Source: Alphaproteobacteria bacterium (GTDB taxonomy: Bacteria > Pseudomonadota > Alphaproteobacteria > Rickettsiales > JABCZZ01). From it: DNA of 64,000 bases. Position 1 is the first letter of the stretch; each line of letters starts with the position of its first letter. The notes beneath the pieces are model-generated. The model did not search any database, had not been told where the DNA came from, and saw nothing but the letters and a program-made list of their open reading frames with translations. Of the stretch, positions 58,768 to 61,743 are shown piece by piece. The stretch lies in contig JABDAT010000002.1 of NCBI GenBank assembly GCA_013288985.1, forward strand, positions 17,857-81,856. Reading direction: 5' to 3'. A program made the translations under genes and the position numbers.

Positions 58768-61743
58768 ATGCCAGATAATACAGAAGATAATGATCGGATA
58801 TTAGACCCAATGCCAGTTGAGTATGAGCCTACGCAACTTGAAAAACTATACGAAACCCGCAGAGAATTGGCAAAACGCGATACTGCACTGACACAGCCAA
58901 TAACGGATTTGGTGGTAAAAGGACGGGAAATCAACACAGCACTTGCTAAACTTAATACTTCGCTAACAACCACAAAAAGTAGTCTTAGTTCCAAAAATGC
59001 AGAGAATTCAATAATCCAGGGCAAAATTACTACACTAGAAGGTGAAATAGACGGTATCAATGCATCGATAGCAGCTGCTTTTGCTGGAGCAGCTGTTTCA
59101 GCTCTTTTTGATTTTGGTATTGGGGCAGCAGCAGCTGCTGTTTTTGCATCAGGAGCAAGAGCTGAAAGAGTTCAAAAAGAAGAGGCGGCTGTAAAACTAG
59201 AGAGAACAAAACACAGCACCTCTTCCTTAGAGCAAGAAGCAACGGCGCTTACCAAACAGGTTGAAGGATTTCGTGCACAATTACTCACTACTACACAAGG
59301 TAAAACGGAAGCAGAATTGAATCATGCTTATCGCGTAGTTGTGGATCAAATTCTGAATGAACAGGCTATAAGAATTTCCATTGAAATGGAGAAATGTGCC
59401 AGAAATGCTGGAACTGACTTGGATCGTGTATTGCAAGCAGGTGGACCAATAGCAGAAGCTTTCGTAAATGCTACAGTGAACAGAGAAATGCTGGAAACGG
59501 TCATAGATTGGTCGCGTAGCGAACAGGGGAATGTAAGTATGCCTCCTGAACTTATGGCGCTTCGGCAATTTGTCAATCAAGTGGTTATCCCTCATCAGGA
59601 TTATTTTGAGATACTTGCCAGTAAAAATGACGATTTACAGAATAATGGGCGGAACGGCTATCCACCACTTGAAGTCTTGCAAATGAAACCTGTTTCACTT
59701 TCCGGACGCCGCCAGTTACCTGCTCCCCCTCGTTACAACTCCGAAGATGAAAGAAAGGCATCTGAAAGAAGGGCTGAAGCTGCAAAACAGGCAAAAGACA
59801 TGGTGCCAGTAATAGATTGGGGAAACGCAATGGATGCTTCTCAGCCTGTAACACGCAGACTGAATAATGCAGTCCAAACGGTAGAGAATCGACTTGGTGA
59901 AATTGATGATATATTTGCAGGCATCCAGGAGAGAATAGATAAACTTACTGGTGAAGAGCCCCAATTGGCGACTACGAAACTGGAAAAAGAGAAAATTCTT
60001 TTAGAAGGAAAGCGTGCCAATACTAAAATTGATGGTGAAATCGACAAATTACAAACTGAAATTACAACAAGAAAAGCAATGTATGCTGAATCTAATAAAG
60101 GATTGGCATTAGGCATTGCACTTCCTATCGGCAGAAAAGTTGTTATGAGAGCTGGTGCAGGAGCAGTCGCAGGAAGCGTTATTCCAGGTATTGGCACTGT
60201 TGCAGGTGGGATATTCGGAGCGATAGAAGGCCTTGTAGAAGGTGCAGGTAATATACTTTTTGAAGGAAAATCAGACTCCACAATCAGCAAAATGACAGGA
60301 TATAAACTCTCTGCAAATGAAGAATTTAGAATAAAAGAAGCACTTATTGCTAATCTTAAAACTAAGAAAGTAGACGTTATTGCCCATGCAGCTGAAATTC
60401 AAAGTATAGCAAATAAAATAGAAGAAATTGTTGTATCCAAAAAATTTCAGGAAATGTTAACTGATGAAGTAAAATCAGAGCGTGTTGTGCAAGCATATGT
60501 AGCGCGTTCTTTATTACGTTCTGGCTCTCATAATACGCAGGAATTACAACAATCCTGTGAAATAAGTGGCGTTTCTTCGGTCGATAGCTTTCTTACTGCA
60601 TTTGATGGACGCTTGGGAGAAGCATTACAGCGCTTCTGTTTTGGCATCGCTAATTCTAATGACATGAGAGTGATTATTGCGGAAGCCAATGGAGTAAAGG
60701 CAAACGATACGGATACTAACAGACGAGCACTAAGAGATTTTGCCGAAGATGTACTAAAGCCAGATATTGGTGCATATCTTACCCACGCCTCAAAAGTGGA
60801 TAAAATCTATCAAGCTAATCTCATCGGGCTGGGTACTCAGCTACATTGGGAACGCGAAATGGTGCGGGATACAACGGATAGAGAATTAACTGCGCTGTTT
60901 GCAAATGAATTTGGCATGTCGGTTGTAGGAGTACAGGATATCAGAAACATTTTTGATTCTTACCTGCATCGTCATGGCGATAAATATATGTACGATGCAA
61001 AGCTCAAAGATGGACAGATGACGGATGAATATCCCGATATGCGCGTGAATGTGGTTCCCGAAGAGCGCATGGATCGCTTTGTCGATATGGTTAAACGCTC
61101 CGCAGCTCATGCACGCACAACCCAACCGAATGTGGGAGATATGTTTCTGCGGATCTGCGGCTATGAATATTTCAGGCCGCAGGCTGTAAGAACAGCGGGA
61201 ACGGATAATATCTTCCTCGAAAACCCTGAAGCACCCGCTTCCTATCCAATGGTCAATGAAGTGGTGAATAATTTTATTGAACGCTTAAGCTTAAGCCCAA
61301 TAGAAACCTATCGTGAGCAGGTAGGAGTTAGATTAGACAGCCTTATTGCCCGAAGTTTTATGGATTTTTTTGCTCGTTTAGGTGAGATCCATGGACAGGA
61401 TGAGGCCATCGACAATCATCGTAAAAGAACACGCGATGCCGCCAGAGCCGACCAATATGGTTCGGTATTCAGCTCATATACTCGGCGCATTACAGCCGAT
61501 GCCGTTAACCACTACGATCTTTTTCTTGATATATATAAAGAAAATCTTGAACGTGTATCGGAATTGGCACCCGAAAAAGACAGAAAATTATTACAGGCGC
61601 AGATAGAAAAACTTTCCGAGCCAGCGCGCACTACACTTAATCCCGATGTCATGGATCCAACATCGCACCAGGCGAGACTTACCGCCGCCTATGAAGATCA
61701 TCTTTTTGAAAATATGCGTGGAAAAGGCGGTGGAATATCATAG
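58768..61743 (+). CDS. Hypothetical 991-aa protein with two coiled-coil / Gly-Ala-rich hydrophobic segment units and a large unrecognised C-terminal region
   Basis: ATG at 58768 is preceded by AAAGGAG. Hydrophobic segments are encoded at 59062-59157 (ASIAAAFAGAAVSALFDFGIGAAAAAVFASGA) and 60100-60258 (GLALGIALPIG...AGAGAVAGSVIPGIGTVAGGIFGAIEGLVEGAGNIL). Each is flanked by heptad-like charged helices. Confidence 0.75.
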   Translation: MPDNTEDNDRILDPMPVEYEPTQLEKLYETRRELAKRDTALTQPITDLVVKGREINTALAKLNTSLTTTKSSLSSKNAENSIIQGKITTLEGEIDGINASIAAAFAGAAVSALFDFGIGAAAAAVFASGARAERVQKEEAAVKLERTKHSTSSLEQEATALTKQVEGFRAQLLTTTQGKTEAELNHAYRVVVDQILNEQAIRISIEMEKCARNAGTDLDRVLQAGGPIAEAFVNATVNREMLETVIDWSRSEQGNVSMPPELMALRQFVNQVVIPHQDYFEILASKNDDLQNNGRNGYPPLEVLQMKPVSLSGRRQLPAPPRYNSEDERKASERRAEAAKQAKDMVPVIDWGNAMDASQPVTRRLNNAVQTVENRLGEIDDIFAGIQERIDKLTGEEPQLATTKLEKEKILLEGKRANTKIDGEIDKLQTEITTRKAMYAESNKGLALGIALPIGRKVVMRAGAGAVAGSVIPGIGTVAGGIFGAIEGLVEGAGNILFEGKSDSTISKMTGYKLSANEEFRIKEALIANLKTKKVDVIAHAAEIQSIANKIEEIVVSKKFQEMLTDEVKSERVVQAYVARSLLRSGSHNTQELQQSCEISGVSSVDSFLTAFDGRLGEALQRFCFGIANSNDMRVIIAEANGVKANDTDTNRRALRDFAEDVLKPDIGAYLTHASKVDKIYQANLIGLGTQLHWEREMVRDTTDRELTALFANEFGMSVVGVQDIRNIFDSYLHRHGDKYMYDAKLKDGQMTDEYPDMRVNVVPEERMDRFVDMVKRSAAHARTTQPNVGDMFLRICGYEYFRPQAVRTAGTDNIFLENPEAPASYPMVNEVVNNFIERLSLSPIETYREQVGVRLDSLIARSFMDFFARLGEIHGQDEAIDNHRKRTRDAARADQYGSVFSSYTRRITADAVNHYDLFLDIYKENLERVSELAPEKDRKLLQAQIEKLSEPARTTLNPDVMDPTSHQARLTAAYEDHLFENMRGKGGGIS

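Follow-up and report, generated by a model that had tools for sequence, protein, structure and literature searches.

A three-gene module of a large, internally duplicated coiled-coil protein, a hairpin partner and a small third protein, carried on genomic islands of distant bacteria

Chlamydial Inc proteins and the Legionella LegC family are secreted effectors that combine coiled coils with a bilobed, moderately hydrophobic hairpin, and hairpins of such moderate hydrophobicity are typical of secreted transmembrane substrates. Single-chain AB toxins, represented by CNF1, PMT, DNT and the diphtheria toxin T domain, carry a Cys/His enzyme domain at the C-terminus and a translocation region formed by a hydrophobic helical hairpin. 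In YaxAB, a binary alpha-helical pore-forming toxin (alpha-PFT), a two-helix stalk connects a helical head with a hydrophobic foot, and membrane helices come from both subunits (PMC5935710). Here, we analyzed 64,000 nucleotides of a genome classified as Alphaproteobacteria (assembly GCA_013288985.1, contig JABDAT010000002.1, positions 17,857 to 81,856 of the forward strand; this whole stretch is called the window, and nucleotide positions refer to it) and focused on one gene, the 991-amino-acid (aa) product of which is designated p991. Results revealed that p991 belongs to a three-gene module (Table 1) composed of a large protein of ~1000 aa, a hairpin-bearing partner of ~500 aa and a protein of ~90 aa designated p87. 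As judged by sequence comparison, the module is previously undescribed, and neither the large protein nor the partner nor p87 corresponds to a described family, structure or system.

The p991 gene is a real gene. An AAGGAG ribosome-binding site lies 7 nt 5' of the ATG at 58768, which makes a longer, TTG-initiated form (from 58708) unlikely. An earlier reading of this DNA, made by a model from the letters and their open reading frames (ORFs) and referred to below as the sequence-only reading, had placed a 991-aa ORF here, divergent from a cluster of paralogs across a gap of 138 bp; the ORF was confirmed, and the gap has exactly that length. No N-terminal hydrophobic signal or signal peptide was found in the p991 sequence. 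AlphaFold2 (AF2), run on a 52-sequence alignment of the family, returned an all-alpha model with a mean predicted local distance difference test score (pLDDT) of 77.5 and a predicted template modeling score of 0.72, in which two long helical hairpins are predicted (H43-106/H119-177 and H361-447/H505-555) and the high-confidence globular regions are aa 181-293 and 558-985. Unit A is made up of a heptad helix (43-106), a Gly/Ala-rich hydrophobic tip (94-132), a return helix (119-177) and a helical domain (181-293), and unit B repeats this order with a heptad helix (361-447), a Gly/Ala-rich tip (446-498), a return helix (505-555) and a helical domain (~572-683). The two tips are the Gly/Ala-rich hydrophobic stretches that had been noticed from the sequence alone. 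The charged heptad helices proposed there were upheld for the helices that enter the tips (aa 43-98 and 361-445), the observed score being reached by 0 of 2000 shuffles, whereas the return helices gave a weaker signal (p=0.07 and 0.03); the same test detected no heptad periodicity in control helices taken from globular parts of p991. The G/E-I-D motif assigned to the turns does fall in about the same register of both units in the profile alignment, but its conservation across the family is not strong.

The two units share an origin. Self-comparison of p991 by BLAST (no composition correction) aligned aa 48-290 with 410-680 at 19% identity (E=0.022), and profile-profile comparison of re-aligned family sub-alignments gave 94% probability and E=1.1e-7 for the whole units and 98% probability and E=9.6e-14 for the helical domains (aa ~186-293 versus ~572-683), while reversed-sequence controls reached only E=0.24-0.75. 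By this profile evidence, units A and B are homologous, beyond mere compositional likeness. Thus, p991 arose via tandem duplication of an antiparallel heptad coiled-coil stalk with a 35-55-residue Gly/Ala-rich hydrophobic turn and a helical domain of ~110 aa. The sequence-only reading had recognized two similar units but drew their limits (~30-200 and ~365-560) too short, because each unit takes in the ~110-aa helical domain after the hairpin and the true extents are 43-293 and 361-683. Its remaining ~450 aa, described as matching nothing, also has to be redrawn: unit B takes up its first ~110 aa, and over this entire stretch the family is at its best conserved.

Table 1. Features of the module and its surroundings in the window
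Feature	Position	Strand	Basis or remarks
p991, 991-aa large subunit, all-alpha, two tandem homologous units and conserved C-terminal extension	58768..61743	+	ORF and translation
Unit A, aa 43-293	58894..59646	+	Hydropathy, heptad test, AF2, hhalign versus unit B
Tip A, aa 94-132, IDGINASIAAAFAGAAVSALFDFGIGAAAAAVFASGAR	59047..59163	+	Kyte-Doolittle 19-residue maximum 1.81; AF2 pLDDT <50 at aa 101-128
Unit B, aa 361-683	59848..60816	+	Hydropathy, AF2, profile-profile comparison, heptad test
Tip B, aa 446-498, glycine-zipper-like	60103..60261	+	Kyte-Doolittle 19-residue maximum 1.53; AF2 pLDDT <50 at aa 449-509
Unique conserved all-alpha C-terminal extension, aa 684-985	60817..61722	+	Column conservation; pLDDT mostly >90
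Divergent intergenic region common to p991 and p516, 138 bp	58630..58767	.	Sequence
p516, partner	57079..58629	-	Homologues adjoin the large gene at related loci (BLAST, hidden Markov model [HMM], alignment)
p488, tandem paralog of p516	55527..56993	-	~36-38% identical overall; C-terminal ~85 aa nearly identical
p87, small soluble third component (~90 aa)	55255..55518	-	Homologues directly downstream of the partner elsewhere
Remnant of a second p87 copy (first 18 codons), downstream of p516	57017..57070	-	tblastn, 16/18 residues identical
p152, small glycine-zipper protein, end of the same-strand gene run	54751..55209	-	Sequence; module membership uncertain

The N-terminal domain of the partner, p516, is soluble and has an invariant G-x-N-G ... 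P ... R motif, and a low-complexity linker leads from it to a C-terminal hairpin of two hydrophobic helices; the AF2 model of p516 was poor (pLDDT 52, from 5 sequences) and too weak for a meaningful fold search. The C-terminal ~85 aa shared by p516 and its paralog p488 form two moderately hydrophobic helices with a charged loop between them. Since a 300-nt direct repeat (55460-55759 and 57012-57311, 88% identity, 1552 bp apart) spans the hairpin-coding 3' ends of p488 and p516 together with the start of p87, and a remnant of a second p87 copy follows p516, the partner-p87 unit has been tandemly duplicated. Next to the large gene, a partner homologue is encoded in 9 of 13 distinct related loci (BLAST and HMM; L003, L004-6, L007, L008, L009, L013/14, L015 and L018/19), usually divergent from it across a spacer of roughly 120-230 bp, and short divergent spacers resembling that of the window occur with partner genes in L004, L007, L013 and L018. 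On the contig of family member P0023, a 557-aa gene in the same divergent position, behind a 121-bp spacer, is a candidate partner by position only, while the partner of Planctomicrobium sp. SH668 (L002) has shrunk to a hairpin protein of 121 aa. Homologues of p87 are adjacent in four locus types and directly follow the partner in L013/14 (E=8e-11), in L018 (HMM, E=2e-13) and in Planctomicrobium (L002/L011, 45% identity). This conserved linkage strongly supports the guess, made in the sequence-only reading, that p991 and the divergent paralogs act together. The two large proteins themselves are not alike in sequence, p991 and p516 having no BLASTP similarity at E<=0.01, and no family of Pfam, NCBIfam, PADLOC or PHROGs reached its cut-off for p991, the partners, p87 or p152. 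Promoter-like hexamers in the shared intergenic region were no commoner on either strand than in shuffled sequence, and promoter and terminator counts equaled the shuffled expectation. At the end of the gene run, p152 has two Gly/Ala-rich hydrophobic segments and a poly-Ala tail, with only weak matches of SseD, C19orf12 and Romo1 type and a weak likeness to tip B of p991 (E=8.5e-4); at related loci, where no search was aimed at one, a counterpart was not seen.

In a word-indexed protein search, p991 returned the query alone (alignments returned few members), and it could have passed for an orphan. This was overturned by exhaustive HMMER over 1.84 billion cluster representatives, which found 83 homologues with E<=1e-3, including 57 with E<1e-30; their length is mostly 900-1100 aa. 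The word-indexed failure probably arose as low-complexity coiled-coil and Gly/Ala words saturated the candidate list. Genome and metagenome scans, for which broad family alignments were too diverse for pattern design, recovered with a narrow alignment Planctomicrobium sp. SH668 and three metagenome loci; tblastn against a plasmid database gave no match. The Planctomicrobium large protein, encoded on a complete chromosome, is 40% identical to p991 over aa 130-988. Column conservation over 68 sequences placed near-invariant residues in the C-terminal extension (R735-H736-G737, D748, C797, E800-Y801, N830, D866, H875 and N926) and, just before it in domain B, at D632, K664 and D678, and the family motifs include G-x-A-[DN]-S-N-D, K-P-x-I, A-S-K-x-D, H-R-H-G, F-L-R-x-C-x-Y-E-Y, N-P-E-A-P and L-D-N-L-I-A-Q-x-F-x-D-F-F. 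Nearly all of the near-invariant residues are kept by p991, the exception being the consensus K758, which is Met, and p991 also has the conserved C-terminal domain, the preceding coiled-coil hairpin and the adjacent tail-anchored partner gene by which the new family is defined. The pattern of near-invariant polar residues suggests a catalytic or ligand-binding site. A Cys protease of the papain or CE-clan kind (His736 ... Cys797) was considered from the motif spacing, and the predicted all-alpha fold argues against it. The C-terminal extension had no match in Pfam, NCBIfam or PDB, and Pfam over the 52 family members found only leucine-rich repeat (LRR) and Sel1 domains in a few N-termini and none in the C-terminal region; in a few relatives, LRR_6 or Sel1 repeats replace unit A. 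After N982 of p991, the family alignment also has a conserved [TM]-x-W-[RK] motif.

The module is horizontally mobile, with a patchy distribution, and often lies beside integrases, a relaxase or recombinases. A TrwC-like relaxase gene adjoins the Planctomicrobium copy, ParB/RepB and resolvase genes are near the module in L007, phage-type integrases in L018/L019 and a recombinase in L013. In the window, the module region has a GC content of 41-43%, compared with about 45-48% over most of the window, and is flanked by TrxA and a truncated GlnA-like ORF on one side and by MlaA on the other. The GlnA-like ORF (270 aa, 53920-54732, +) aligns with glutamine synthetase models over their C-terminal catalytic half alone (TIGR00653, 189-414 of 462); it lies at the left edge of the lower-GC island with the module and probably represents a truncated gene. 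Elsewhere, the window has ordinary chromosomal genes, including those of RcdA, AddA-like, GlmS, TopA, DprA, GatA, a TonB-dependent receptor and a cytochrome P450, and RcdA is indicative of an alphaproteobacterium. Lipase- or phospholipase-like proteins in L002 (10076-11980, +) and L013 (11805-14510, +) are 56% identical over ~330 aa, and have a G-H-S-L-G-G motif (PF26363 was precomputed on the L013 protein). As their genes flank the module at two loci that are otherwise unrelated, the lipase-like gene may be a recurrent fourth cargo gene. In the window itself, an alpha/beta-hydrolase-like ORF of 386 aa (62717-63877, -; 453 aa on Logan contig L001) has a G-Y-S-L-G-A motif and no Pfam or NCBIfam family. 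Genes of MbnB/HvfC-like and DoxX proteins lie just upstream of module-family genes in L009 (1341-3466) and L017 (3950-6147), a recurrence that may reflect only related genomes.

This island context also bears on the possibility that the module acts in abortive infection against phages or plasmids, with the C-terminal and variable N-terminal domains sensing infection and the hairpins of the two large proteins depolarizing the cell's own membrane. Membrane-active effectors are common in defense systems, the N-terminal repeat domains differ among relatives, and, in addition to the mobile-element setting, the module of L008 sits beside Hachiman (HamA and a helicase), T5orf172, PIN, helix-turn-helix and toxin-antitoxin genes, and BrnT/BrnA genes are near the module in L017. 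However, PADLOC-DB 2.0 gave matches at noise level only (LmuB, E=6e-4, on the coiled coil; DruF, E=3e-3) and none for the partners, defense genes were not seen at most other loci and the window copy stands among housekeeping genes. Moreover, the L008 copy appears disrupted (5075-9473), with the large gene split into 484 and 490 aa and the partner into 431 and 68 aa, for which pseudogenization or an assembly error is possible. We therefore consider a defense role distinctly unlikely.

The reading that we favor, tentatively and at somewhat less than an even chance, is that the module is a membrane-inserting, toxin- or effector-like system that would resemble the binary alpha-PFTs by analogy and not by homology. 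A toxin- or effector-like role is preferred to a housekeeping one because of the island context, the swapping of LRR and Sel1 domains at the N-terminus, the lipase-like neighbors and the local duplication of the partner. According to this proposal, p991, which has no signal peptide, would at first be soluble or peripheral, and the tips of its stalks would then enter a lipid bilayer in the form of re-entrant helical hairpins, like the YaxA/XaxA foot or the hairpins of translocators, probably together with the hairpin of the partner protein. Insertion might either perturb the membrane or hold the conserved C-terminal domain, with its possible enzymatic or ligand-binding site, against it, and p87 may serve as a chaperone or regulator. 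The sequence-only reading had also called p991 a membrane-inserting protein. The architecture of two stalks, hydrophobic tips and no signal peptide fits conditional insertion, whereas the poor conservation of tip hydrophobicity does not. The two outcomes that it had named as speaking against this assignment did not occur, in that the AF2 model is not polytopic and no housekeeping family was matched.

The likeness to binary alpha-PFTs such as YaxAB is one of architecture, by analogy. XaxAB/YaxAB and p991 are all-alpha, and in each a helical domain goes with a long coiled-coil stalk of two helices that turns at a hydrophobic "foot" (PMC5935710, PMC6086661); XaxAB/YaxAB also act as two co-encoded proteins that both supply hydrophobic helices, as p991 and its partner would, and have no signal peptide. 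Unlike those toxins, p991 is 2.5 times longer and holds two units in one chain with a conserved extra domain of ~300 aa, its partner is unrelated in sequence and tail-anchored, and a third small gene is conserved. AhlB, SmhB and NheB/Hbl-B likewise share with p991 a coiled-coil helix that runs into a Gly/Ala-rich hydrophobic hairpin, in multicomponent, co-encoded systems, but these toxins are Sec-secreted proteins of ~350-400 aa with paralogous components, and neither Sec export nor such paralogy is found in the p991 module. With CNF1, PMT and DNT, p991 has in common a single chain of ~1000 aa, internal hydrophobic hairpins, near-invariant C-terminal Cys, His and Asp residues and, among relatives, a variable N-terminus; it differs in having no Pfam match to their domains and an all-alpha C-terminal domain with no detectable structural relative. 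To our knowledge, toxins of this type have no conserved partner genes of the p516 or p87 kind.

Searches with curated models placed weak alpha-PFT matches on both units. Unit A matched the XaxA/YaxA model (NCBIfam NF033928) at 24.9 bits against a cut-off of 125 (E=1.1e-5), with p991 aa 53-148 aligned to model positions 157-249 of 339 only, around the stalk and foot of XaxA, which makes this the best sub-threshold match of unit A, and unit B matched the NheB/Hbl model (NCBIfam NF051442) at 17.2 bits against a cut-off of 500 (E=2.1e-3), with aa 359-550 aligned to positions 156-342 of 398. The PDB sequences of AhlB and SmhB matched tip A at E=0.5-1.3, and tip A and AhlB have a local motif in common, L-x-G-[ED]-I-D-x-[IV]-N-A-x-I ... 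A-G. Diphtheria_T (PF02764) reached 16.6 bits at aa 389-480, against a gathering cut-off of 27 (E=0.0098), and the family profile compared with PDB returned only AopB (3wxx, E=0.019), over the coiled coil and hydrophobic segment, and no alpha-PFT. In all, PDB sequence searches made with p991 alone, with its N-terminal 300 aa and with the family profile gave only weak matches on coiled coils or tips. The weak matches to NheB, Diphtheria_T, AopB and phage tail proteins all fall on the region of tip B, and those to XaxA, AhlB and SmhB on that of tip A. A purely compositional origin of the XaxA and NheB matches was rejected, because reversed and block-shuffled p991 lose all of them, as well as those to AhlB, SmhB and Diphtheria_T; thus, the alpha-PFT-like matches are not trivially compositional.

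Several results weigh against the favored reading. The alpha-PFT scores are far below the curated cut-offs, by 5-30 times, and XaxA or NheB is matched by only 1 of the 52 family members (P0001), even at E<=1. Foldseek of the p991 model found nothing in PDB at E<0.001 and no alpha-PFT in the top 50, and among the viral structures of BFVD it found only generic long-helix matches with TM scores of 0.08-0.09. The tips of both hairpins are modeled with low confidence, and their sequence and hydrophobicity vary widely across the family, with almost none in some members: a hydrophobic segment is present at tip A in ~18/52 members (about a third) and at the position of tip B in ~35/52, where its strength is very variable. 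What matters most in p991 could instead be its conserved C-terminal domain. No secretion signal and no secretion system, and in particular no gene of a type III (T3SS) or type IV (T4SS) secretion system, was found among the window ORFs scanned, and several of the related contigs are short metagenomic fragments.

The same scores bear on whether p991 could be a true, very remote alpha-PFT of the ClyA superfamily (Xax/Yax, Hbl/Nhe, Ahl/Smh), with two fused toxin-like units and p516 as the second component. The unit-specific matches to XaxA, NheB and AhlB/SmhB, their loss in the reversed and shuffled controls and an order of head-like helical domain, coiled-coil stalk and hydrophobic foot that parallels YaxA/YaxB are all consistent with such descent. 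Against it stand not only the missed cut-offs, the single matching member and the lack of any alpha-PFT in the profile and Foldseek comparisons with PDB, but also a partner that is not homologous to p991, unlike the A, B and C components of those toxins, and a helical domain that comes after the hairpin instead of enclosing it. Because the scores are so far below cut-offs, 1 of 52 members matches and Foldseek gives no support, homology to alpha-PFTs is not shown, family-wide homology was rejected on the member count, and membership in this superfamily is highly improbable. More generally, homology of p991 to alpha-PFTs, translocators, tape-measure proteins or known defense proteins is not established. 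The class to which the sequence-only reading had assigned p991, alpha-PFT or T3SS translocator, was thus not borne out (24.9 bits against 125, 17.2 against 500, 1/52 members and no Foldseek match in PDB).

Regarding translocators, AopB, IpaB and YopB resemble p991 in having a coiled coil followed by Gly/Ala-rich hydrophobic segments, and, by analogy with two translocators and their chaperone, the module also pairs hydrophobic proteins with a small accessory one. Unlike in the T3SS translocators, p991 homologues occur in Planctomicrobium, and p87 is not a tetratricopeptide repeat (TPR) chaperone. A T3SS major translocator (IpaB/YopB/AopB) is not supported as an identity for p991, given that Pfam and NCBIfam gave no translocator domain for p991 and no TPR or chaperone match for p87 (no TPR class II chaperone), and that no T3SS genes were found among the window ORFs scanned. 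The C-terminal two-lobed hairpins of p516 and p488 are also reminiscent of those of Inc and LegC proteins; in p991, however, the hairpins lie at coiled-coil turns and not at a terminus, and no sequence relationship was detected. The source organisms are not known to be intracellular bacteria. A broader alternative is that p991 is delivered by type IV or type III secretion as a host-membrane effector or translocator, in the manner of IpaB/YopB/AopB, Inc or LegC. It would agree with the weak AopB profile match, the moderate hydrophobicity of the hairpins, which is that of secreted transmembrane substrates, the eukaryote-like LRR_6 and Sel1 N-termini of relatives, the relaxase beside the Planctomicrobium copy and C-terminal tails that are net positive in 42 of 59 members (mean charge +0.95, versus -0.26 expected from whole-protein composition), although these tails are at best a weak hint of a VirB/D4-type signal. 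We regard it as very unlikely, however, in view of the absence of T3SS and T4SS genes from the window, of a translocator Pfam domain and of a TPR class II chaperone, and of a close homologue on the complete chromosome of Planctomicrobium, a free-living genus. Moreover, the window genome is not of the reduced intracellular type, because TonB-dependent receptors, a P450 and similar genes are present.

A further alternative would keep p991 at home, as a non-toxic resident of the producer's inner membrane that acts as a scaffold, tether or remodeling complex, with hairpins inserted from the cytoplasmic side and a tail-anchored partner, in a mobile-element or envelope function. The lack of a signal peptide and of a secretion system nearby is consistent with this, as are the likewise hairpin-anchored p516 partner and p152, which have no signal peptides either, and the concentration of conservation in the C-terminal domain rather than in the tips. 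In L004, the neighbors of the module are envelope and housekeeping genes, as in the window, and across the two loci they include MlaA, HtpG and ExbBD-TonB. A resident role is nevertheless unlikely, considering that the module is very rare, patchily distributed and found on islands, that its hydrophobic segments are weak, Gly/Ala-rich and internally charged, which is atypical of stable inner-membrane anchors, and that LRR or Sel1 swapping and linkage to a lipase-like gene accompany it. A phage tail tape-measure or tail-associated protein is not supported either: the PHROG matches (E=3e-4 to 7e-3) are confined to aa 444-512, the Gly/Ala-rich tip, and no phage structural genes were seen among the neighbors examined, those scanned in the window being housekeeping genes. 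Elsewhere in the window, two ORFs of 410 aa (20666-21898, +) and 560 aa (38282-39964, -) had no NCBIfam match at E<=1e-5.

Returning to the favored toxin- or effector-like reading, the mode of action inferred for it would vary a known theme, the insertion of alpha-helical hairpins. A bolder version of it, which we consider somewhat unlikely, is that the three genes represent a new class of mobile alpha-helical membrane-attacking systems, unrelated by descent to ClyA/Xax or the translocators, in which co-inserted hairpins would breach a membrane and deliver or activate an all-alpha Cys/His/Asp enzymatic domain, as a toxin against other cells or an abortive-infection effector. If the inferred mechanism is true, evolution would have arrived independently at a coiled-coil stalk with a hydrophobic tip as a means of inserting into membranes conditionally, the stalk being here fused to an uncharacterized conserved domain and carried on islands between bacteria as distant as an alphaproteobacterium-like genome and Planctomicrobium. 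Since a word-indexed search found 1 match and exhaustive HMMER found 83, similar families rich in low complexity may be systematically mislabeled as orphans. The module is a defined and testable three-gene unit, with deletion targets at aa 94-132 and 446-498 and point-mutation targets at H736 and C797, and may be of use in the search for a new toxin, effector or defense mechanism.

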